From assembly GCA_003151625.1 (NCBI GenBank), contig PLYC01000010.1, forward strand, positions 133,515 through 197,514: 64,000 nucleotides of DNA. The letters are read 5' to 3'. The first letter of the stretch is position 1, and each line of letters opens with the position of its first letter. The notes under the pieces are model-generated. The model was not told the origin of the DNA. It saw only the letters and a list, made by a program, of their open reading frames with translations, and made no database searches. This stretch comes from Candidatus Doudnabacteria bacterium. GTDB lineage: Bacteria; Patescibacteriota; Doudnabacteria; UBA920. Made by a program: the position numbers and the translations under genes. Below are positions 4,332 to 61,854 of the stretch, piece after piece.

Positions 4332-5216
4332 TTATATAAACAAAAATATTGTTCCCAAAAAAATCAAAATTACGCCAAAACTTTTCTGTGTAAAAATGTG
4401 CCGGCCGGAATCTTCTTCTATTAAATGCCGGCGCTTTTTGCTTAAAAACAAACTAAACAGCAGCAAAAATATGTATCTAAAACCCTGTAGGCCGTTTACT
4501 ATGGCAATTTTGCCTAATACCAATAAAAAGCTAAAAAAAACAAAGTTTAAACCGCCTAACAACTGCTTGAATAAAAACATTATCGACGTTCCGGTCTTAT
4601 TTTTTATGGCTTCGGTGGCAAAAACTTTTTTCTTGAACGAGGGAAGAATTAACAGCGCCAATAAAACCAAAGCCGCGCCTAGCCGGTTCCACATTAGATT
4701 ATTTAAAACCGGCCCCACTTGGGAGCTGTATTGCCATAGCGCGTAATAAACGCTAAATAAAAAAGCGCTTAAAACTTTGAGGCTGACATGTTTGCCCCAG
4801 CCGCTGGATTGTTGATGTGAAATTAGCAGAGCGCCGGGAATAAGCAAAAACATCGCCGCCACCTCGTTTACCCGCAAAATGTTCCTGCCGGTTAAAACTG
4901 AAATTAAAATATCAAAAACCGGAACAAGACCAAACACAAATGGTACCACCCGGGAAACTTCTCCTTGTGACAGGGCTTTAAAAAAGACATAAATCGCCAA
5001 CGAAAACATGGCGCCGGAAAGCATGCACAGAAAAATTAAATGCGCCGGGAGGCTGTAGTAACTCCAAGGCCACGCGGCCAACAAAACCAAACCGGTAACC
5101 ACTGTGTAAAAAGTGTATTTAACCGGCTCCAGTTTGCGCGCGGTAATCAAAAACTTATCCATTAAGTCGACAACGGCCTGGATAAGGTACTGAAAAATTG
5201 TAAGAAAAATAATCAT
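4332..5216 (-). CDS. Polytopic membrane protein (possible DMT/EamA-like permease)
   Basis: About eight or more hydrophobic helices. Its start overlaps the GH1 gene stop (ATGA). Family assignment is uncertain. Confidence 0.5.
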   Translation of the reverse strand: MIIFLTIFQYLIQAVVDLMDKFLITARKLEPVKYTFYTVVTGLVLLAAWPWSYYSLPAHLIFLCMLSGAMFSLAIYVFFKALSQGEVSRVVPFVFGLVPVFDILISVLTGRNILRVNEVAAMFLLIPGALLISHQQSSGWGKHVSLKVLSAFLFSVYYALWQYSSQVGPVLNNLMWNRLGAALVLLALLILPSFKKKVFATEAIKNKTGTSIMFLFKQLLGGLNFVFFSFLLVLGKIAIVNGLQGFRYIFLLLFSLFLSKKRRHLIEEDSGRHIFTQKSFGVILIFLGTIFLFI

Positions 5217-9447: not shown

Positions 9448-9532
9448 TTCCGCCAGCCTAGGCTGGCGGATCCGCCTCCCTTCGAGGGTCTGAGGACCAC
9501 TCAGGGTCTCGAACGACCGGCGGAAAGTACAG
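9448..9532 (+). ncRNA. Candidate structured leader or small RNA
   Basis: GC-rich multi-hairpin segment in an AT-rich spacer: CCGCCAGCC-TAG-GCTGGCGG, CCCTTCGAGGG, CTGAG-GACCA-CTCAG, GGTC-TCGAAC-GACC. Sits directly downstream of a strong promoter. Confidence 0.3.
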
Positions 9533-9613
9533 AAAGATCAAAGTTAAGGATAAAAAAGCATTTTTACTCGGTTTTAATCTTAAATCCTTAATCCTAAATC
9601 TGTTAACTGACTT

Positions 9614-11668: not shown

Positions 11669-11740
11669 TATTAATTGATATTAGGATATTAGGATATTCT
11701 TGATAATATCAGCCAATATCTATAATATCTATTAATATCT
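11666..11740. repeat. AT-rich inverted array (GATATTA x4 / TAATATC-type) between convergent genes
   Basis: tGATATTAattGATATTAgGATATTAgGATATT ... ATATCTATAATATCTATTAATATC. Likely a bidirectional terminator hairpin. Confidence 0.5.
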
Positions 11741-13018
11741 TTCCAGGTATCCCAAGACTATATCTTCCGCTTCTTCCAAATCTTTTGCGTTTAAAAGTTT
11801 GGCGCGGAGTTCGTGGGCGCCATTAAAACCACTGCAATAGGTTTTAAACTGTTTGCGCATTATAAAAAAAGATTTATGCTCGCCCAAGGTGTCTTGGAAT
11901 AGTTTGGCATGTTCGAGCATTGCCCGAAATCTCTCATTTAAACCAGGATGATAATCATCGGCGAGGAATAGCCACGGATTGCCAAACGCTCCCCTGCCTA
12001 TCATAACCCCGTCGCATCCGGTTTGCGCCACCCGTTCCAAGCCTTCTTGGCGTGACTTAATATCGCCGTTGCCTATAATTAGCGGCCGCAGGCCAACTTC
12101 TTTCCCTCTCCCTCTGGGAGAGGGTGAAGGGTGAGGGTTCATCGGAAACATTTCATCCCTAATCTCAACCGCCTCTTTAATGGCTTCCCAATGCGCCGGG
12201 GCTTTGGATTTTTCCTGCTTGGTGCGGGCGTGCAAAGTTAAAGCCGCAATGTTGGTTTCCAATAAATTTCTAACCCAATCGCCCATTTCATCGGTTTTAC
12301 TGTATCCCAATCTGGTTTTGACCGATACCGGTAAAAAACCGGCGGCTTTTTTTGTGGCGCTAATAATTTCCTGCGCCAATTTTGGCTCACGAATTAACGC
12401 GGCACAAGCGCCAATGCCGATTTCTTTGTCCTGCGGACAGCCCATATTTATGTCTATTCCGTCAAAACCCAAATCCACAATAATTTTGGCCGCCTCCTCA
12501 AACTTGGCCGGAGAATTTCCCCAAATTTGAGCGACTATCGGCCGCTGGATTTCCGAGTACTTTAAATCTATGGCCAAATTTTTCCTGCCCTCCGGATGCG
12601 TTAACCCGTCTACATTTATAAATTCCGTATACATTACGAAGCTATTACCACCTCCCCCCGCTGCGCGGGGTACTCCTCCTATGATAGGAGGAGATCTCCG
12701 CGTGTCATTCTGGGATAACTGCGGAGCGTTCCCCTCCTTGCTTAGGAGGGGTGGCTCGCGCAGCGAGACGGGGTGGTGACCGCTATAGCGGGCAAACATT
12801 TCCCGAAACGCAAAATCCGTTACCTCCTCCATGGGAGCAAGACAGAAAATCGGTTTACCCAGCACCTTCCAAAAATTATGCCCACCAGCTTCACCCAAAG
12901 CAAAAACCTCTGATTTTACATCAGATTTTCCATTTTGAAAGAAGGTGCTGGGCTTGTTAAGTTTTTGCCAGAAGCTGGACATATAGCTAAGTTTAATCAA
13001 AATACCGCTCCCGTGCAA
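11732..13018 (-). CDS. tRNA-dihydrouridine synthase (Dus family) carrying two in-frame GC-rich insertions
   Basis: Motifs LAPMEEVTDFAFREM, IDINMGCPQ and NGDI fit the Dus family. The probable true start is the Met at 12981, because the first Met lies inside the rplL terminator hairpin. Confidence 0.8.
   Translation of the reverse strand: MHGSGILIKLSYMSSFWQKLNKPSTFFQNGKSDVKSEVFALGEAGGHNFWKVLGKPIFCLAPMEEVTDFAFREMFARYSGHHPVSLREPPLLSKEGNAPQLSQNDTRRSPPIIGGVPRAAGGGGNSFVMYTEFINVDGLTHPEGRKNLAIDLKYSEIQRPIVAQIWGNSPAKFEEAAKIIVDLGFDGIDINMGCPQDKEIGIGACAALIREPKLAQEIISATKKAAGFLPVSVKTRLGYSKTDEMGDWVRNLLETNIAALTLHARTKQEKSKAPAHWEAIKEAVEIRDEMFPMNPHPSPSPRGRGKEVGLRPLIIGNGDIKSRQEGLERVAQTGCDGVMIGRGAFGNPWLFLADDYHPGLNERFRAMLEHAKLFQDTLGEHKSFFIMRKQFKTYCSGFNGAHELRAKLLNAKDLEEAEDIVLGYLERY
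12104..12137. repeat. Short GC-rich palindromic in-frame insertion in the Dus gene
   Basis: CCCTCTCCCTCTGGGAGAGGGTGAAGGGTGAGGG encodes the extra segment PHPSPSPRGRGKEVG. Confidence 0.6.
12648..12778. repeat. GC-rich palindromic element inserted in-frame in the Dus gene (family with 60840-60937 and 12104-12137)
   Basis: Terminal CCACCTCCCC...GGGGTGGTG, internal hairpins CTCCTCCTATGATAGGAGGAG and CCCCTCCTTGCTTAGGAGGGG. GC content far above the surrounding gene. Confidence 0.7.
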
Positions 13019-13035: not shown

Positions 13036-13131
13036 TATTCGATGATAATCAATATTGCCTTAGAAGGGATCCTTCGCCCTCGGATGCACTCGGGCTCAGG
13101 ATGACCCTCAAATAATTTTATTGCTGAAAAA

Positions 13132-14222: not shown

Positions 14223-14465
14223 AAATTAGTAGTTAGTAGTTAGTATCTAGCTTTTCGACCTTTAATTGTAAATATCTCAAAAATAAAACTCGGGCTTACC
14301 CGAGTGGTTGTAGTTGCCCGATTCATCAGGCCATAAAGCTTCATAAATGAAGCAACTACATATTCCTCGGTGGGCAACCATCTTGCGATGATAATTATGA
14401 CCCTACGGGTCACCAACTGTCTTTGGATATTTTCCCGCAGAGCGGGATCCGCCTTTGGCGGAAAC
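14223..14465 (-). promoter_or_regulatory. Putative rplJ (L10) leader region
   Basis: About 240 nt structured 5' UTR between the mapped promoter and the rplJ start, where the L10(L12)4 autoregulatory leader normally lies. Contains hairpins, for example GGGATCCGCCTTTGGCGG. Confidence 0.4.
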
Positions 14466-22914: not shown

Positions 22915-23055
22915 AGTTACCATTCAAGCAAAAAAATAAGGGCATGGACAAAAAATCCAAGCTCTTTTTTATCTAATGTTATTCCAAGTCTTTAAAATAT
23001 AGGACAATAGGGGTCGACGAGAGCCGGCCCCTATTTGGTTTGAGCGCCATTGCGC

Positions 23056-23508
23056 TCAGTTGATGGTGACGGGACGCAGCTCGAGGGGTTCCTGTTCGTA
23101 GGGAACGAAGAACGCTTTGGATCCCGCCACAGCTACGCCCTTTCCGGAAGTCCCGTCCGCCAAGGCGAGACCGATGTTGCAGCGGCAGCCTAATCCTGGA
23201 GTGGTGATGAGTTCGTGATACTGCTGAAAGGCCTCGCTCCACCTCTCCAGGACGATATGGTGACCGTGGTCGTCAGTGTAGACATTGACACCCTCTTCGT
23301 GCAGGAGGCGGAGAACGGCGTTCTCCACAACCTTGCCCGAGAAGGGCTTGTCCGCATTGATTACCAGGTGAAACAGGCGGCCGGTCATCCGGGCGCCGTT
23401 CATGATGATGGTTTCTGGGTTGCCGACAACGAACTTCGTATCCGGTTGGCCGGATCGTAAATGCATTGCCAGCGTTTCCGCAATCTGCCCTTGACGTTCT
23501 GTGAACAT
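23056..23508 (-). CDS. Hypothetical 150-aa protein of the high-GC island
   Basis: High-GC codon usage continuous with the island. No confident family; motifs VVGNPE and TDDHGHH noted. Confidence 0.45.
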   Translation of the reverse strand: MFTERQGQIAETLAMHLRSGQPDTKFVVGNPETIIMNGARMTGRLFHLVINADKPFSGKVVENAVLRLLHEEGVNVYTDDHGHHIVLERWSEAFQQYHELITTPGLGCRCNIGLALADGTSGKGVAVAGSKAFFVPYEQEPLELRPVTIN

Positions 23509-23544
23509 ACACGCTCCTTGGTTGGTTGTCGGTAACTTTCGGTA

Positions 23545-23754
23545 TTAGGCCGAGTGAACGCAGGTGCCGTCGGAATTGTAGGCATAAACTTCAATGCCGA
23601 CGCCGCGGTTGGTGTGAGCGATGTCATCGATCTCCCGTTGGCTTAACGGTGCGTTGTAGTCGCCAATAAAGAAATCTTCGCCATGCTCGTGCCCGATGAA
23701 ACGGATCTTACCATCCGGAGCCTTGGGCTCCGTATCTGACTTTCGGAATAGCAT
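23545..23754 (-). CDS. Hypothetical 69-aa protein of the high-GC island
   Basis: ORF upstream of the 150-aa gene in the same transcription unit. An AT-rich promoter spacer precedes it. Confidence 0.35.
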   Translation of the reverse strand: MLFRKSDTEPKAPDGKIRFIGHEHGEDFFIGDYNAPLSQREIDDIAHTNRGVGIEVYAYNSDGTCVHSA

Positions 23755-23904
23755 GATTCCTCCCCCTTTGCAAATTTATATCGCACGTTTCAAAACATAT
23801 TTATAAACTCTGTGAACCGTAAAATAATGAAAATACTACTTACTGAGAAAATGATCTTGGTTTGAAATAATTATATACCTATTCAATAAATAAAAACAAC
23901 CTGA

Positions 23905-23945
23905 AAAAATCAACCCGGCGCGTCCTCCTTTGCGCCGGGCGTGGT
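23905..23945 (-). terminator. Terminator after HisRS-like paralog 1 (CCCGGCGC-loop-GCGCCGGG + T-run on the minus strand)
   Basis: Seen directly. Confidence 0.6.
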
Positions 23946-23959
23946 TGAAGAACAACAAC

Positions 23960-25285
23960 TTAAACCTCCTGGAGCACCTGCCCCAGGGCATTCCGGACAT
24001 CGGCCTCGAAAGCGGAGCGGCATTCGAGGGCGTGGGTGAGGGTGGCTTCTTTGCCGCTGACGCAGACCACCAACTGGCATCCGCGGAGTTTGGCCTGTTC
24101 TACCGCTCCCGCGGAGGAAAGCGGGTCGTAGCTCAGGTCAACGTTGATGCCAGCATTGCGAAGCTGCTGGGCGAATCGGAAAGCCATGGCTGTACTGTCG
24201 TTATTGCCGCAGTACGCTACCAGGACTTTATCCGGAAGGACAAGCTCGGATTTGAGCATGTCCAATTCCTTCATGACTGCAAGGATGCGGTCGAGGCCGA
24301 AGGCCATGCCGACCGCCGGTTCAGGCGGAGCGCCGAAAGCGCCCACCAGATTGTCGAATCGGCCACCGCCGAGTACCGCGCCGATTGGCACGCCGGGAAT
24401 CACTCCTTCCAGAATGAAACCGGTGTAATAGTCGGCGCCGCGAGCCAACGTAAGGTCGATTCTGACGTGAGATAGCACTTCGTCGGGCAGATAAGAGAAA
24501 ATCTCCCGGAGCTCAGCGATGCCGGTTAATCCGGCCGGCTGGTCGTGAAGATTGTCTTGAAGGTGTTGAAGCATGTCTTCGAGCGAGCCGGAAATAGCGA
24601 TGACGCCCATAATGCTTTCTATCAGGGCGCTGCCAACCCGGCGGCGTTTCAGGTCTTCGCGAATCCCTTCCAGGCCTGCCTTGGTCACCTTGTCGGCGTA
24701 ATCCATAGCGCGTTGCACCTTGAGGATGCCGTCTTTGCCGGTGATACCGGCGCGGGCAGCAATGGCCTGGATGATCATGCGATGATTGACGCGGATGACG
24801 AACTGCCGGAAACCGAGGTCGCAAAGGCCGCGGTATGCTACGGAGATAATATCAGCGTCAGCCAGAAGGCTGGAAGCGCCAATGATGTCCCCATCGCATT
24901 GCATAAACTCGCGGAAGTGCCCCTTGTCCGGTTTGTCATCGCGAAACACATAGCCGAACTGATACCGCTTGTAGGGGCGGGGCAGGTCGGGGTGCATGCT
25001 GGCTACGCGAGCCAGCGGTACCGTTAGGTCGTAGCGGAGAACGAGACGGTGTTTCTTGTTGTCTCCCAGGCGGAAGATGAGCTTCTCGCCCTCGCCGTGG
25101 TGGCCGTCAAATACGACCTCGTTCTCGATGGTGGGGGTATCGTGGGGAGTGAAACCGCTCTTCTCGTAGACAGAACGGAGAATACGGATAACGTAATCAC
25201 GCACCCGCATTCCAAGCCCCAGCTTGTCAGTAGTGCCCGGAGGGACGGCGTTCTTAAGCCGAGACCGGGTCTGTGGATGACCCAT
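23960..25285 (-). CDS. Divergent class-II HisRS-like paralog 1 (full length with anticodon-binding-like domain)
   Basis: Altered motif 2 RDDKPDKGHFREFMQCDGDIIG, histidine-binding ARGADYYTG, motif 3 LGGGRFDNL and a C-terminal alpha/beta ABD-like region. Confidence 0.8.
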   Translation of the reverse strand: MGHPQTRSRLKNAVPPGTTDKLGLGMRVRDYVIRILRSVYEKSGFTPHDTPTIENEVVFDGHHGEGEKLIFRLGDNKKHRLVLRYDLTVPLARVASMHPDLPRPYKRYQFGYVFRDDKPDKGHFREFMQCDGDIIGASSLLADADIISVAYRGLCDLGFRQFVIRVNHRMIIQAIAARAGITGKDGILKVQRAMDYADKVTKAGLEGIREDLKRRRVGSALIESIMGVIAISGSLEDMLQHLQDNLHDQPAGLTGIAELREIFSYLPDEVLSHVRIDLTLARGADYYTGFILEGVIPGVPIGAVLGGGRFDNLVGAFGAPPEPAVGMAFGLDRILAVMKELDMLKSELVLPDKVLVAYCGNNDSTAMAFRFAQQLRNAGINVDLSYDPLSSAGAVEQAKLRGCQLVVCVSGKEATLTHALECRSAFEADVRNALGQVLQEV

Positions 25286-26621
25286 TGTTTGCGCTCTCCT
25301 TGGCGCGGATGAGGCTAATAGCCTCTTTGGTGCTCACGTTGCTGGTTTGTCCTGTGGACATATCCTTGAGGGAAACATAGCCGCCGGCGACTTCGTCGTC
25401 GCCGATCACGATGATGAAAGGAATTCCCAGCCGGCTGGCGTAGGTTACCTTTTTTTTCAGCTTGGCATCATCGAAGTATACGGCCGTAGGTATGCCGCCT
25501 TCGCGCAACTCGGTAGCTGCCTGCAAAGGAACGCGGAGATCGGAAGTTTGCGGAATGACCAGCACTATAGCGGGCGTTGCGGATTTGGGAGTAATGATGC
25601 CCGCTTCGCGAAGCTGGTAAAACAGCCTGGTCAGGCCAATGGAAATTCCGACGCCGGGCAACTGTTTGTTGGTATAGTACCCAGCCAGGTCGTCGTAACG
25701 TCCGCCCGAACAGACACTGCCGATGCCGGGGTAGTCATTCAGCACCGTTTCGTACACGGTGCCCGTGTAATAGTCGAGGCCGCGGGCGATTGTCAGGTCA
25801 ATAGCGTAATTCTGCCCGGGAACCCCAAGCGCCGAGACGTAGGAAATTACCTTCTCCAATTCGTCGACGCCGGTATGGAAAGTGCCGTTGCTGATCTGCA
25901 TCTGCTTGAGCTGGGAGAGGATGGCGGCCGTGTCGCCTGTCAATCCGATGAACGCAAGAACTTCGCGCGCCGCATTGGGTGGCGCTCCTAGACCGGCCAA
26001 CTCCTGCTGAACTGCTTCCTGCCCGGCTTTCTCCAGCCTGTCGACCGAACGGAGGATGTCCGCGGCCTGGCTGGCAAGTCCGAGCGATTCGAAGAAGCCG
26101 TTCAGAATCTTGCGATTGTTGATTTTGATGGTGAAGCGGGAAAAGCCGAGCGCCGTAAAGGTTGCGTAGATGACGCTGGGAATTTCCGCGTCGTTTAGCA
26201 AACTCAAAGCGCCGTCGCCGATGATGTCGATGTCGCACTGGTAGAATTCCCGGAAACGGCCTCTCTGCGGCCGCTCTCCGCGGAACACTTTTCCGATGTG
26301 GTAGCGCCGGAAAGGAAACGCGAGGTCCGGATAGTGCTGCGCTACATAGCGGGCCAACGGAACCGTGAGATCAAACCTCAAGGCCAAATCGCTGTCGCCC
26401 TTGGTGAAGCGGTAAATCTGCTTTTCGGTCTCACCGCCCGCCTTGGCCAAAAGCACTTCGGCCAATTCGATGACGGGGGTATCTAGCGGAATGAACCCGA
26501 ACCGTTCATAGCTTTTCTGGATTACTCCCAACATGCCGTTGAACAGCATTTGGTCTGCCGGGAGCAGTTCCATAAAGCCGGAAAGGATCCGGGGGGTGAC
26601 TTTACTTGGATTGTTGTTCAT
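25254..26621 (-). CDS. Class-II HisRS-like paralog 2 (more canonical)
   Basis: Motif 2 FRGERPQRGRFREFYQCDIDIIG, ARGLDYYTG, CSGGRYDDL and ABD region AIVLVIP...IPFIIVIGDDE. Its 3' end overlaps paralog 1 by 32 nt. Confidence 0.8.
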   Translation of the reverse strand: MNNNPSKVTPRILSGFMELLPADQMLFNGMLGVIQKSYERFGFIPLDTPVIELAEVLLAKAGGETEKQIYRFTKGDSDLALRFDLTVPLARYVAQHYPDLAFPFRRYHIGKVFRGERPQRGRFREFYQCDIDIIGDGALSLLNDAEIPSVIYATFTALGFSRFTIKINNRKILNGFFESLGLASQAADILRSVDRLEKAGQEAVQQELAGLGAPPNAAREVLAFIGLTGDTAAILSQLKQMQISNGTFHTGVDELEKVISYVSALGVPGQNYAIDLTIARGLDYYTGTVYETVLNDYPGIGSVCSGGRYDDLAGYYTNKQLPGVGISIGLTRLFYQLREAGIITPKSATPAIVLVIPQTSDLRVPLQAATELREGGIPTAVYFDDAKLKKKVTYASRLGIPFIIVIGDDEVAGGYVSLKDMSTGQTSNVSTKEAISLIRAKESANNGSSTDPVSA

Positions 26622-26875
26622 AATATTTGATCAATCCTCCTGCATGGTACAAACTACGGAATGACTGGCTCCATAATTCTGCCAATCGATGGTAAAGAAC
26701 AAACAAGCTCATCCTTATTGCACGGATAAACTTATCGTATTACTATAAATCAATTTAGCTTATATTGTCAAGGAGATTGGGTTTGGCCAGAGAAGCCCCT
26801 GACAAAATTTTTTAACTTGATTTTATTGGATAAATAATATATATAAAAGTCGAGTGAACTGTAAAAAAAGATATC

Positions 26876-26920
26876 CGGGCAGCTCCTAAGAGGAACTGCC
26901 CGGAAGATAAAACCTTTGCC
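26876..26920 (-). terminator. Terminator after the MIO-lyase gene (CCGGGCAG...CTGCCCGG + T7 on the minus strand)
   Basis: Seen directly. Confidence 0.6.
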
Positions 26921-26933
26921 AAACGGCTCGGGT

Positions 26934-28589
26934 CTAAGTGGTCAACGCGTTGCAGGCTGACTGCATCAGACTTCCGTCTGCCAGCATGCCCTCGACTGCG
27001 TCCAACTCGGCCTTGAGATACCGGTCATCAAACCAGGTCTGGTGGCCTTTTGCCGTTTCCTTCTGGAATACGCCGCGGATGTGGCCGTAAGCCTCGCTCG
27101 TTCCGAGCCCGAGCTGCTGGAGGTTTTCCGGCAGCAAATGCTGAGTGAGGGTGATCCCTTGCGACGCCATGAACAGTTCGGCGGCAAGCACGCGACGGAT
27201 GATCGGCAGCATGGAGCGAACTTTGAGAGCGCTGTTCATTCCCATGCTCACCCAGTCTTCCTGGTCTGCCGAGGTCGTGATCGAATGAGTCGAGCAGGGA
27301 TTGGCCAGAAGCGCAATCTGATTCACCAAGGAGGCAACCCCATATTGCACGATCATCAGGCCGGTATTGGCCGTATTGGGACCGGCAAGATCCGCAGGCA
27401 AACCGTAGCTTAACCTGGGAGTAGTCAGAGCGAAACCTCGCCGGTCACTGGCGCCGGCAAGCGGCGTCAGGGCTATTGCGAGGTAATCCAGCGGCGCCGC
27501 CAAAGGCTGACCGTGAAAATTGCCGCCTGAAATGGCTATGTATTGCGCGCCGTTCTCATCATCCTCGAACACCAGAGGATTGTCGGTTGCCGAGTTGAGT
27601 TCGACTTCGAGAATCGATTCCAGATGAGAAAGTGCTTGGTATGCCGCCGCATGAATCTGGGGCGCACAGCGGAACGAGTAAGCGTCCTGAACGCGGGGAA
27701 CCTGCTTGCCGTGGCTAAACTTCTTCTGTTCGTCCGGAAAGGCTACGGATCTGGCTTCTTCCGTAATTCTCCTGGATCCTTCGGTAAACTTCCTGATGCG
27801 CGCCGCGGAATGAACCTGACCGGGTAATGGCCTGGCTTCATGGATGCGGGCATCGAAAGCGTTCTGTTCTCCGCGAATAGCCTCTAAAGACAAGGCCGTA
27901 GCGAGGTCGGCGGTTTCCAAGAGAATCCAGCCGTCCACTACCGCAAGACACGCAATTGCCGCAATGAAGTTGGCGCCGTTTGTCAGTGCCATGGCTTCTT
28001 TGGCCGCAAGCGTGAGGGGTTTGAGGCCGTGGTTTTCAAGAACTGTTCTGGCCGGTTGAATTTCGCCCGCCACGAACATTTGACCTTCCTCAAGGCCGAT
28101 TATGCCCGCGGACATGTGAGCCAAGGGAATTAAATCTCCCGAGGCGCCCACCGATCCGAACTCAGGGACTACCGGGGTAAGCCCCAAATTCAGGCAATCG
28201 CGGAGCCTTTCAATCAGGCAAGGTCGCACGCCGGAGTGACCCTTCAAAAAGTTGTTCAGCCGAACAAGCATGGCTGCTCGGGTGACTTCGGGTGAAAGCG
28301 GGTTCCCATAGCCGCAGCAATGGGCCGGGATATAACGCATCTGGTAATCGGACAGTTCGTCCGACGGCAACACTTGGTTCTTGCGGGAGCCACAGCCGGT
28401 ATTGACACCGTACATGATGTCTCCACGGATAGCGGCGGCTTCGAGTCCTTGACGGAAACGTTCGATTTTCGCAAACGTCTCGGGGTTGATCTGAACCTCG
28501 TGATGATGTCTGGCCACGGCTATAACCTGTTCAGTGGTTAAGCTGTGACCGTCTACCTCCACGATTCTCTGCGTAAGCATAGATTTCAC
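26934..28589 (-). CDS. MIO-dependent aromatic amino-acid ammonia-lyase/aminomutase family protein (HAL/PAL-like)
   Basis: Ala-Ser-Gly MIO triad in GSVGASGDLIPLAHM, plus YGVNTGCG and a selectivity-region A-H (IPAHCCGYG) resembling the HAL S-H. 551 aa. Confidence 0.85.
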   Translation of the reverse strand: MKSMLTQRIVEVDGHSLTTEQVIAVARHHHEVQINPETFAKIERFRQGLEAAAIRGDIMYGVNTGCGSRKNQVLPSDELSDYQMRYIPAHCCGYGNPLSPEVTRAAMLVRLNNFLKGHSGVRPCLIERLRDCLNLGLTPVVPEFGSVGASGDLIPLAHMSAGIIGLEEGQMFVAGEIQPARTVLENHGLKPLTLAAKEAMALTNGANFIAAIACLAVVDGWILLETADLATALSLEAIRGEQNAFDARIHEARPLPGQVHSAARIRKFTEGSRRITEEARSVAFPDEQKKFSHGKQVPRVQDAYSFRCAPQIHAAAYQALSHLESILEVELNSATDNPLVFEDDENGAQYIAISGGNFHGQPLAAPLDYLAIALTPLAGASDRRGFALTTPRLSYGLPADLAGPNTANTGLMIVQYGVASLVNQIALLANPCSTHSITTSADQEDWVSMGMNSALKVRSMLPIIRRVLAAELFMASQGITLTQHLLPENLQQLGLGTSEAYGHIRGVFQKETAKGHQTWFDDRYLKAELDAVEGMLADGSLMQSACNALTT

Positions 28590-28774
28590 TCCTAAACCGA
28601 GATTTCAACTGTACTGAGACTTAGAACAGACAACCCAAAAATAGGTGCGTTGATGTTATTTTTCCTCCAAATTCAAGGCAAAACAAACAACTCAACCCTT
28701 TGAGCGGTCTGGTCTGTGCTATATGCATATACCTTTTAACACCCTTCTGTCAAGGGCTTAAATAAAAGAGTTTT

Positions 28775-59995: not shown

Positions 59996-60121
59996 AGACT
60001 CATTTGCTGACGATTTTAATTTTTATTTTTTGTTTTGAGCTTTTGGCTTGTTTTATTTTTATTTTTCCGGCGGAGCCGGATCCCGTTCCGCGGGACATAT
60101 CCATAATCATTTATTTGCGTG

Positions 60122-61168
60122 TTAAAGTTTTGTAATCGCTCTTAGCTTTGCCGGTTTGCTTTTACTATTCAGTGCTAATTCGTGCGAATTAGCACTCACC
60201 GGTTTTTTTGTTAAAATTCTGCCCCTAGGGTCTCGCCCGCAAATACATTGGGGGAAATCTGGAGGGCAAACACAGCCTTTGGTTAACCCAACAAAAAATT
60301 GTTTAACAATTCTGTCTTCCAGAGAATGAAAGCTTACCACCACAAGCCTACCGCCGGGAACTAACAAATCAAAGGCTTTGGGCAAAAATTCCTGCAAATT
60401 TTCCAACTCGTGATTAACCTCTATCCTCAAGGCCTGGAAAATTCTCCTGGCACTGTCATCGGCCTTATGCTTTACCGGCTTTGGCAGCGCCTCTTCGATA
60501 ATCTGATAAAGTTGGTCTGTGTGCGTTATTTGGTTCCTGGTTCTTGAGTCTTGAATCTTCCGGCCTATTTGCCGGGCAAACTTCTCCTCGCCGTAATCTT
60601 CAAAAATTTTTATCAGCCGTTTTTCGTCGTAACTATTTAAAATAAACTTTGCATCTTCCGGCTGGCTTTGGTTAAACCTCATATCCAGCGGCTGGTTTGT
60701 CTGGAAGCTAATTCCGCGATGTTCTAATTCGTACGATGACAGTCCGAGATCTGCGACAATCCCGTCAGGAGCGGGAAAATTATGATTCTTTACTATGTGA
60801 TCTATCTTGGCAAAATTCCCCTGGATTATCATCGCGTTTCCACCCTCCCCTAGCCCCTCCCCTGAAGGGAGGGGAAAAGAACCCCCTAGATGTTCTGCAG
60901 TTTCCTCTCCCTTTAGGGGGGAGGTTAGGTGGGGGTGATTTTTGATATTTAAAATTTGAAGTTTAAAATTTTCTACCGCATCTTTATCCAAATCAATGGC
61001 CAGTAATTTCCCAGTTTTACCAATTTCTTTTAATATCGCTTTACTGTATCCCCCACCTCCTAAAGTCGCGTCCACGATATTCTGACCAGAACCGGGACTA
61101 AGATACTCCAAAACCTCGTTAAGTAGGACTGGAATGTGTTCATAGGTGTTCATTATGATATTAACCAA
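60122..61168 (-). CDS. rsmH: 16S rRNA (cytosine1402-N4)-methyltransferase RsmH with an in-frame GC-rich insertion
   Basis: HIPVLLNEVLEYL, VDATLGGGGYS and FHSLEDRIVK motifs. Extra segment HLTSPLKGEETAEHLGGSFPLPSGEGLGEGG. Confidence 0.9.
   Translation of the reverse strand: MVNIIMNTYEHIPVLLNEVLEYLSPGSGQNIVDATLGGGGYSKAILKEIGKTGKLLAIDLDKDAVENFKLQILNIKNHPHLTSPLKGEETAEHLGGSFPLPSGEGLGEGGNAMIIQGNFAKIDHIVKNHNFPAPDGIVADLGLSSYELEHRGISFQTNQPLDMRFNQSQPEDAKFILNSYDEKRLIKIFEDYGEEKFARQIGRKIQDSRTRNQITHTDQLYQIIEEALPKPVKHKADDSARRIFQALRIEVNHELENLQEFLPKAFDLLVPGGRLVVVSFHSLEDRIVKQFFVGLTKGCVCPPDFPQCICGRDPRGRILTKKPVSANSHELALNSKSKPAKLRAITKL
60840..60937. repeat. GC-rich palindromic element inserted in-frame in rsmH (same family as 12648-12778)
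   Basis: CCACCCTCCCC...GGTGGGGGTG termini. Internal hairpins CCCCTCCCC-TGAA-GGGAGGGG and CCTCTCCC-TTTA-GGGGGGAGG. Confidence 0.7.
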
Positions 61169-61854
61169 AGCATGAAGATGTTTGTAAAATAAACTTCCAA
61201 TTTAAACTTGGAATCCAAATTCCTTTATAATTACACACTGATGCATAGCCTTCTCCTGATTTTAGGGTATCGGTAGTATTCCAGGAAAAGCGAATTCTAT
61301 TTGTCCAAACCAACGCTATTAAAAAAATCAAAATGATTATCGTACCGGTTATCTTTGTAGATTTTTTCATTTTTGTTTTTCCCTGTCATTCCGGAATTTG
61401 GAGTGCGCCCGACAAATATCCGGAATCCAGGTATCCCAGAACGTCGCTAAATAAAACCGGAATGTGGCCATAGTTGTTCATTACTTAAACATTAGTTTTT
61501 TTATTGCCCCGATTTAAAAGGATAAAAACTGCTCCCAAAATACCAGTTATGGGCACAAAGATAGCGATACCAATCCATCCGCTTCCTTGTGTAGAAGGCC
61601 GAAATAATATCACGATAGACCATAACAAATACCCCAAACTAACAATAAAAAAAAGTAGTACTATGATTCTTAAAACTTTTTTAATTTTTTGCCACATTAT
61701 TTTTATTTTTTTGTTTATTTGTCATCCCGCCCGAGTGCATCCGAGAGCCGGGATCTAGTTCAAGCAAGAATCTGGATCCCGGATATTTTTTACGGCTGAC
61801 GATGTGCTTTGGCGTAAAAAATTCCGGGATGACACACCTTTTTTTAAAAAACGG

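Follow-up and report, generated by a model that had tools for sequence, protein, structure and literature searches.

The stretch of DNA analyzed here (the window: 64,000 nucleotides (nt), to which positions refer unless a locus is named) comes from Candidatus Doudnabacteria, a lineage of the candidate phyla radiation (CPR)/Patescibacteria. On its minus strand, at 60122-61153, it carries rsmH, the gene for the 16S rRNA m4C1402 methyltransferase, with a product of 343 amino acids (Pfam PF01795; P0001) whose named homologues are from Doudnabacteria. The Pfam profile Methyltransf_5 matched RsmH with an E-value of 1.5e-93 in two stretches and skipped an insert in between. This insert, at 60840-60937 (no strand assigned), is a composite palindromic element built of two inverted units of the BoxC/PIT type and a variable centre. 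On the plus strand it starts with CCACCCTCCCCTAGCCCCTCCCCTGAAGGGAGGGG and ends with AGGGGGGAGGTTAGGTGGGGGTG (complete: CCACCCTCCCCTAGCCCCTCCCCTGAAGGGAGGGGAAAAGAACCCCCTAGATGTTCTGCAGTTTCCTCTCCCTTTAGGGGGGAGGTTAGGTGGGGGTG), and its GC content is 61% as compared with 43% for the window. The protein block that it adds comprises 33 codons (60839-60937, H73-G105) and reads in translation HPHLTSPLKGEETAEHLGGSFPLPSGEGLGEGG, including the peptide stretch SPLKGEETAEHLGGSFPLPSGEGLGEGG; the palindrome proper measures 97-98 nt, which is no multiple of three. An earlier note on this DNA had described a 98-nt palindrome that lies in frame and adds 33 residues to an otherwise canonical RsmH, and the coordinates, the split Pfam match and a homologue without the insert bear this out.

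The architecture is that of an inverted pair of ~37-nt units on either side of a 23-nt centre. Unit R (60840-60876, minus strand), which on the mRNA strand is the 3' unit, reads TTCCCCTCCC-TTCA-GGGGAGGGG-CTA-GGGGAGGGTGG, that is, a C-rich arm and a loop, followed by the G-rich complement of the arm, 3 nt of linker and another G-rich arm. It contains the G-quadruplex (G4) motif GGGGAGGGGCTAGGGGAGGG (60843-60862, minus strand), canonical by a G4 regular expression and predicted from the motif alone; only two canonical G4 motifs occur in the window, this one and one in a short insert of the dus gene. The centre (60878-60900, no strand assigned) has GGAAACTGCAG as its 5' part. Unit L (60901-60937, plus strand) reads TTTCCTCTCCC-TTTA-GGGGGGAGG-TTA-GGTGGGGGTG, with the order C-arm, G-arm, G-arm on the plus strand. 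On the mRNA strand it is the 5' unit, of the order C/C/G, and forms a degenerate reverse complement of unit R, CACCCCCACC-TAA-CCTCCCCCC-TAAA-GGGAGAGG. The inner hairpin CCCCTCCCCTGAAGGGAGGGG occurs once in the window and had no match in 100 shuffles. By RNA folding, the whole element is one long imperfect hairpin on either strand, with minimum free energies of -56.2 kcal/mol (z -2.9) for the mRNA strand and -67.5 kcal/mol (z -5.9) for the other.

An assembly artefact is an unlikely source of the insert, because the identical RsmH is encoded on contigs of two separate assembly records, one of them a 424,907-bp scaffold. Repeats and strong hairpins can mislead assemblers, but a related insert at the same position, with the frame intact, is present in a third metagenome, and we put the chance of an assembly or binning error, such as a chimeric join at a repeat, close to nil.

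Relation to the BoxC / PIT / TM_ECO repeats

A 24-nt core of the element, CCCCTCCCTNNAGGGGAGGGGCTA, was found exactly in 68 metagenome contigs with GC contents from 38 to 74%, where it usually extends to ...GGGGAGGGTG. In an nhmmer search, a profile of 41 unrelated metagenome units (type A) matched unit R at 60841-60876 (minus strand) with an E-value of 7.5e-13; unit L, which is more degenerate, gave a weak match at 60902-60919 (plus strand, E = 0.054). The sister core CCCTCTCCCNNNGGGAGAGGG occurs at more than 120 loci among the matches listed, nearly always followed by a short linker and GGGTGAGGG, in Pseudomonas, Xanthomonas, Enterobacteriaceae, Acinetobacter, Planctomycetes, Chloroflexi, Acidobacteria and others. 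The type A copies (n = 71) are mostly intergenic. A full-text search with the type B sequence led to two descriptions of such units (Holder et al. 2015, PMC4666352; Kaplan et al. 2016, PMC5100583), while a literature search with the type A sequence gave no match.

The published unit consists of a C-rich arm of ~9 nt, a loop of 3-6 nt, the complementary G-rich arm, a loop of ~3 nt and another G-rich arm, one mismatch at most being allowed, in the pattern CCCTCNCCC N3-6 GGGNGAGGG N3 GGGNGAGGG (PMC4666352). Holder et al. trace BoxC to the E. coli repeat surveys of the 1990s and the PIT elements to Maher and co-workers (2000), and the units are also the HPG1/HPG2 'G-quadruplex-hairpin-duplex switch' of Kaplan et al. 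The two papers (PMC4666352, PMC5100583) record 3,610 copies in 262 proteobacterial genomes, give the motif for proteobacteria and cyanobacteria, and find that a single strand of the unit forms a triplex and a hairpin/G4 in vitro. In E. coli, inverted pairs of units are known, and in strain K-12 all 23 copies lie between genes and 'none within' open reading frames (ORFs); how the repeats spread was not explained (PMC4666352).

At the level of sequence, the rsmH segment is thus shown to be a member of the BoxC / PIT / TM_ECO family, because the published pattern fits, the profiles match and the 24-nt core is exact in 68 contigs. Unit R has the three blocks in the form CCCCTCCC-TTCA-GGGGAGGG(G)-CTA-GGGGAGGG, and the profile matches and the exact core are similarities that go beyond shared composition. 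The likeness extends from the succession of C-arm, loop, G-arm, 3-4-nt linker and second G-arm to the G4 and triplex potential and to the inverted pairing, since the 98-nt element is itself two inverted units, as are the elements at the loci L161, L162, L178, L180 and L201 (loci and proteins carry our own L and P numbers). The differences are that the rsmH arms are CCCCTCCC/GGGGAGGG(G) and the published ones CCCTCNCCC/GGGNGAGGG, of which the former are a register variant, and that the published copies are strictly intergenic, whereas the three in the window all lie in frame inside conserved genes of a CPR host with 43% GC. Intergenic location is a descriptive trait of the E. coli copies and no part of the sequence definition.

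The other two copies lie in the dus gene (11732-13018, minus strand). The short Dus insert (Dus2; 12102-12137, plus strand) is an in-frame TM_ECO-type unit, CCCTCTCCC-TCT-GGGAGAGGG-TGAA-GGGTGAGGG, with its G4 motif at 12116-12137; it fits the published pattern except for a second loop of 4 nt, and a profile of 106 units from diverse genomes (type B) matched it with an E-value of 4.2e-8. The long Dus insert (Dus1; 12648-12778, no strand assigned) is a nested palindrome of 131 nt and a third subtype, with CCCCTCC/GGAGGGG arms. The 141-nt stretch 12645-12785 that includes it folds with -80 kcal/mol (z -7.1) on the mRNA strand and -88 kcal/mol (z -7.6) on the other.

The earlier note had assigned the rsmH and Dus inserts to one family, and this holds, with the link lying at the level of subfamilies. 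In local alignments scored against dinucleotide shuffles, the short Dus insert aligns significantly, in reverse orientation, with the right half of the rsmH element (score 33 as compared with 17 +/- 3.2, with 1 of 500 shuffles as good). The long one shows no significant similarity to the rsmH element (19-21 as compared with 15.7 +/- 2.5, with 24-62 of 500 as good). The first 59 nt of the long Dus insert, on the other hand, scored 69 and 50 against inserts in the RsmH loops of two other Doudnabacteria, L195 and L194 (shuffles 15 +/- 2.6, none of 1000 as good), and by this comparison are clearly homologous to them. Because the rsmH element matches the short Dus insert only and the long one matches L194 and L195, the three elements of the window are, on alignment, three subtypes of one architecture and not copies of one sequence.

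The searches in other collections were negative. Among Rfam models (E <= 1), the eight element-bearing loci gave no family on the elements save spurious microRNA models. Viral contigs scanned for the core and the composite contained neither, so that nothing points to carriage by phages. When the translated insert was compared with a protein database, no scored matches were returned, probably owing to composition filtering. Long non-coding stretches in which type A units form dense arrays, with other short repeats (for example, ctctataatt and ggtctccggtcc) between them, were seen in one group of contigs of 43-46% GC from sediment and other metagenomes (L129, L136, L160, L163-L165, L169-L173, L184, L185, L188 and L190).

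The RsmH loop and copies in other genes

In an alignment of 22 homologues, the added block lies between the conserved LLAIDLDxDA helix and the QGNF strand. About 80 of the best 120 homologues have a loop of 19-24 residues between DLD and GNF, and the nearest homologue, P0003 (locus L004; 86% identity over aligned columns and sister in the neighbour-joining (NJ) tree), has no insert, so that the empty sites for which the earlier note had suggested a search do exist in relatives. The related structures in the Protein Data Bank, 1m6y, 3tka and 1wg8 (RsmH/MraW), align on either side of the insert and none across it. An AlphaFold2 model on the 22-homologue alignment reached a mean predicted local distance difference test (pLDDT) score of 77. 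Residues 72-104, between the helix 57-72 and the strand 107-111, had values below 50 and no secondary structure, and the insert is accordingly modelled as a disordered loop in RsmH. A co-translational pause at a domain boundary was ruled out as a role, as the insert is inside the Rossmann fold and not between domains.

Among the 70 closest homologues, we count about 15 with a unit-type insert from reading their loop sequences, and six further loop alleles were verified on DNA (L003, L005, L194, L195, L214 and L215). Besides the window, L003 (protein P0002) has the composite form, at the same codon position and of the same length. Single units are read as HPHPGPLPEGEG in L215 and as NPHSDPLPKGEG in L005, the latter resembling the short Dus insert when compared by eye. 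L214 has the same kind of single unit in another frame and 11 codons upstream, read as TLTLTLSKRERV, and L194 and L195 have the Dus1-like insert type. In the NJ tree, the inserts are found on scattered branches, and both composite carriers have empty closest neighbours. Taken together, the loop sequences show that the same loop of RsmH has been colonized repeatedly.

Unrelated inserts of ~250 nt (85-100 amino acids) were observed in the same RsmH loop of P0014 (L196, 10200-10480) and P0035. Their translation (GGPDGDRTRE) resembles that of a reverse-strand tRNA T-arm. A tRNA-like origin was rejected, as ARAGORN was negative and the Rfam tRNA match reached only 17.8 bits.

Members of the family also occur in non-homologous genes. 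At locus L162, from another metagenome, prfB contains an in-frame composite of 84 nt, which has the orientation and reading frame of the rsmH copy (EHPSLTLPLKGRETAVIPLPSGEGLGEGG); its right arm is identical to that of the window copy at 40 of 40 nt, and the centre motif GGAAACTGCAG is common to both. Between the rsmH copies of the window and L003, the arms are identical at 68 of 74 nt (35 of 37 in unit L) and the centre at 5 of 23, while identity in the gene around them is 72% (50% at third codon positions). Of the two, the prfB copy is therefore the more similar to the window copy, because it shares the 40-nt arm and the centre motif, whereas the centre of the L003 rsmH copy is divergent. Further in-frame units lie in recJ and rnhA (L176) and in the linker of metG in a betaproteobacterial metagenome-assembled genome (L017). 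Thus, as judged from the sequences, near-identical copies are shown to sit in genes that are not homologous. The L176 RecJ, with its unit near the N-terminus, also has in its C-terminal part (~4480-4600) an in-frame stretch ARSASDEAILFEEKIASS...GLLAMTKK, which seems to be the translation of a different widespread palindromic repeat.

The window/L003 pair also speaks for a different explanation, an old, vertically inherited insertion that is not now mobile, has arms conserved by selection and is kept for a function of its nucleic-acid structure, for example, as an mRNA hairpin or G4 switch that slows ribosomes or tunes rsmH, or as a DNA structure in replication or recombination. Arms that are better conserved than the gene around them, next to a divergent centre and at the same position and length, would be expected of it; the canonical G4 motif is on the mRNA strand, and such units form hairpin/G4 and triplex structures in vitro (PMC4666352, PMC5100583). 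We nevertheless consider this explanation unlikely. Most close homologues, the nearest included, lack the insert, different subtypes occupy different positions and frames of the same loop, and the prfB copy of another genome is more like the window copy than the L003 rsmH copy is. Moreover, the insert is not at a domain boundary, and the family had no regulatory activity in E. coli (PMC4666352).

A degenerate AT-rich tract of five AATTTCA-like heptads (60938-60970, minus strand) adjoins the outer end of unit L and encodes KLQILNIKN. A perfect (AATTTCA)4 adjoins the units in the rsmH of L005 (880-910) and the rnhA of L176 (5085-5115), and the empty rsmH allele of L004 has a different heptad, (CAAGAWC)5, in the same place (about 9520-9560). 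Such tracts could belong to the repeat, mark a preferred target or be coincidental, and whether 60938-60970 belongs to the element is uncertain. A loop with simple, slippage-prone repeats and an element that is an inverted duplication of a ~40-nt unit would both suit a local origin by template switching or inverted duplication, with the likeness to the family reflecting convergence of GC-rich hairpins. However, the 24 nt found exactly in 68 unrelated contigs include loop and linker bases, and the identity extends to 40 nt in the prfB copy. Convergence does not explain identical unpaired bases, and an origin of this kind seems to us extremely improbable.

The in-frame copies differ from the consensus unit at its stop codons. 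The consensus has stops in all three forward frames: the TTGA loop contains TGA, the CTAG linker contains TAG, and the unit ends in TGA. TTGA is present in 50 of the 71 type A copies; the window rsmH and L162 prfB copies have TTCA and the L003 rsmH copy TAGA, changes that remove the stop in exactly the frame used (PLP-S/R-GEGLGEGG), and the window copy ends with GGGTGG and not GGGTGA. The in-frame copies thus look like the survivors, stop-free and frame-preserving, of insertion into a permissive loop, which fits better than a selection of in-frame insertions, one of the two options in the earlier note. The same observations bear on a bypass of the insert in translation or its removal from the RNA, so that it would be missing from the mature protein. 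Precedents are the byp elements of yeast mitochondria and T4 gene 60, and a very stable hairpin in a palindrome whose length is not a multiple of three would be in keeping with them. In contrast, the frame is open through the 33 codons in the window, L003 and prfB copies, always the same frame is used, and a different base stands at the loop position where a stop would otherwise arise. No take-off or landing codon pair or splice-like signal was noticed, though no search aimed at them was made. Bypass or removal is therefore very unlikely.

DUF559 genes beside the units and the proposed explanation

ORFs near the units were clustered all-against-all over 188 loci. One recurrent neighbour emerged, proteins of ~115-125 amino acids that belong to Pfam DUF559 (E = 1e-33 to 1e-43) and have the Vsr-like PD-(D/E)XK fold; the clustering of neighbouring ORFs gave no other recurrent nuclease family. 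In a survey of PD-(D/E)XK proteins, DUF559 falls into one group together with Vsr and a homing endonuclease of a group I intron. With a hidden Markov model, 12 DUF559 genes were found in 1.33 Mb of unit-selected loci (L014, L017, L032, L038, L047, L131, L140, L142, L155, L164, L178 and L186), all of them flanked by units, and nearly all of the 10 inspected closely have inverted units on their two sides, arranged as [C-G-G unit >] gene [< C-C-G unit]. An independent set was obtained by collecting DUF559 homologues with tblastn from plasmids and chromids that had not been chosen for repeats (L198-L209). In this set, every gene examined (12 of 12) had a unit no more than 150 nt away, and often one on each side, with arm sequences specific to the lineage; the hosts were Azospirillum, Shinella, Sinorhizobium, Sphingomonas, Methylobacterium, Neisseria, Photobacterium, Deinococcus, Synechocystis, Picosynechococcus and two Pseudanabaena. 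Three control stretches of 50 kb from the same replicons contained 0-0.18 such hairpins per kb, which corresponds to a chance of 0-5% per gene.

One locus combines the nuclease with an in-frame location. The betaproteobacterial metG of L017 (1777-4449, minus strand) encodes a methionyl-tRNA synthetase (MetRS) of 891 amino acids with a complete unit-DUF559-unit block in frame, placed between the domains for anticodon binding and tRNA binding. Its Pfam domains are tRNA-synt_1g (4-406), Anticodon_3 (464-564), DUF559 (649-758) and tRNA_bind (796-888), and comparison with uninterrupted MetRS places unit-derived peptides at both edges of the block. A link of the units to MetRS or tRNA binding proved wrong: the small proteins are DUF559, and the link arose through this one metG with its DUF559 block.

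E. coli K-12 itself has a DUF559 protein, YcjD, with a BoxC unit ~160 nt downstream of the gene (L197, 2204-2245 and 2408-2761), and fabI-ycjD is among the published BoxC sites. We found no publication that links DUF559 or ycjD to BoxC. The presence or absence of the ycjD cassette was followed among 5,426 E. coli genomes, and the alternative allele is a replacement, apparently by the eef efflux island. For about 38% of the complete E. coli genomes, the match is confined to the fabI end of the query. In one such genome (L213, 2800-3170, compared with L197, 2150-2210), the ycjD region beside fabI is replaced by an efflux-pump island, which we take to be eef, with a breakpoint ~40 nt from the K-12 BoxC unit. 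The allele is hence no clean cassette indel and says little about mobility.

By analogy with REP (repetitive extragenic palindromic) sequences and their REP-associated tyrosine transposases (RAYTs), these associations fit DUF559 as the enzyme that moves, or homes into, the repeats. We tentatively go one step further, to a proposal that we hold somewhat below even chances: the BoxC / PIT / TM_ECO repeats may be the cognate ends or targets of DUF559 endonuclease genes and form with them one pan-bacterial, hitherto unrecognized class of selfish elements. This class would comprise autonomous [unit > DUF559 < unit] cassettes as well as gene-less single or paired units. Its members could settle in frame where essential genes have permissive loops and linkers (rsmH, dus, prfB, recJ, rnhA and metG). 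If this is true, the intragenic copies would be the ones seen in gene-dense CPR genomes.

For the rsmH element, we consider it probable that a non-autonomous, paired copy of the BoxC / PIT / TM_ECO repeat has lodged in a tolerant loop of RsmH, where it would be near-neutral and translated as disordered residues. The segment would represent a 'head-to-head' pair, whose units as single strands can form a hairpin, an intrastrand triplex or a G4. It would sit in the surface loop between helix B and strand 3 of the Rossmann fold and would be transcribed and translated together with rsmH as a disordered, Pro/Gly/Glu-rich loop of 33 residues. Selectively near-neutral, it would be 'selfish DNA' in the sense of the Rickettsia palindromic elements and would persist because the loop tolerates extra residues and the copy has no stop in the frame used. 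New copies would presumably arise by enzyme-mediated or repair-mediated copying. The best candidate for the enzyme is the DUF559 (Vsr-like PD-(D/E)XK) endonuclease, whose genes are embedded between inverted units in many phyla.

Several observations weigh against this explanation. The filled loop of the window and the empty one of L004 are too divergent to define a junction or a target-site duplication and, as the window has no transposase either, the label 'MITE-like' (from MITEs, miniature inverted-repeat transposable elements) in the earlier note is not established. The exact codon position and length shared by the window and L003 copies also fit one old insertion followed by several precise losses. 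We infer from the open frame only that the insert is translated with RsmH. In E. coli, the family had neither promoter or terminator activity nor a link to mobile elements (PMC4666352). The DUF559 link is a correlation, and instead of moving the repeats the gene could have them as its target or simply have settled between them. Finally, no DUF559, RAYT or other candidate enzyme is present in the window or in the other Doudnabacteria loci that were scanned with the DUF559 profile (~150 kb of Doudnabacteria DNA for DUF559); because of this, mobilization in Doudnabacteria would have taken place in trans, in the past or by another route.

The BoxC / PIT / TM_ECO family is already known; new are the intragenic and composite form, the CCCCTCCC-type arms and the CPR host. 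Odd GC-rich inserts in CPR housekeeping genes can accordingly be read as members of a repeat family known from E. coli and not as peculiarities of a lineage, and a family described as strictly intergenic can live in essential genes, where its copies would be translated as disordered loops. The 'selfish DNA in proteins' phenomenon of Rickettsia would thereby have a second case, independent of the first. Such inserts are a source of indel variation in the conserved proteins of reduced genomes, with relevance to annotation and to alignment-based phylogeny of CPR proteins. The DUF559 hypothesis is testable and covers two questions at once, the spread of BoxC/PIT and the role of the widespread DUF559 proteins, including E. 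coli YcjD.

Other repeats were observed in the window. A second family of GC-rich palindromic repeats, GTCATCCYG...CCGAGTGCATCCGAG...GGATC and relatives, lies in intergenic spacers (13060-13110, 61380-61440 and 61720-61850), and the motif GTCATTCTGGGAT in the centre of the long Dus insert is related to it. Double hairpins of the form TCCGCC-AAA-GGCGGATCCGCC-TCC-GGCGGA stand at gene ends (193-224, 14433-14464 and 60066-60097), the last of them directly downstream of rsmH, and may be terminators or a third repeat family. The region 23000-28600 has 50-59% GC as compared with 43% for the genome, and both of its strands carry large ORFs, several in all; it may be an island acquired by horizontal transfer.

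Comparison with other repeat systems

The units resemble the REP/REPIN sequences in being short imperfect palindromes found alone, paired in inverted orientation across a short spacer or in alternating arrays, and in having a small nuclease-type gene between inverted copies, which is RAYT there and DUF559 here. However, they start with CACCC/TTCCCC and lack the GTAG/CGTC head, and the neighbouring gene encodes a Vsr-like PD-(D/E)XK protein (Pfam DUF559) and no Y1 HUH transposase (Y1_Tnp). Without this head and a Y1 transposase, they do not belong to the REP/REPIN-RAYT system. Furthermore, REPs are species-specific, whereas the units described here are nearly identical across phyla.

With MITEs (for example, Correia and Nezha; PMC10969869), the units share that they are small, non-coding, palindromic, multi-copy and sometimes in frame. 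Their ends, on the other hand, are not the classical terminal inverted repeats of a transposase, and no parent of the insertion sequence type was found. DUF559 genes are flanked by inverted units, but DUF559 is not a known transposase.

Comparable embedded palindromes are the mobile GC clusters of yeast mitochondrial genes. The coding palindromes of Nematomorpha mitochondria (PMC6649704) are likewise GC-rich or perfect palindromes in frame in essential genes of a compact, AT-richer genome. Both are organellar, have unrelated sequences and lack the triplex-type unit of three arms.

In mode of persistence, as in-frame palindromes in conserved genes, the rsmH element is like the Rickettsia palindromic elements (RPE-1 to RPE-8). 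These are AT-richer, 100-150 nt long and confined to Rickettsia, and they are translated into tolerated surface segments. They were reportedly described by Ogata et al. in 2000 as short palindromic repeats lying in frame in the conserved genes of a small genome. The unit family of the rsmH element differs from them, by description only, in that it is GC-rich, extends over many phyla and, outside the CPR examples, is mostly intergenic.

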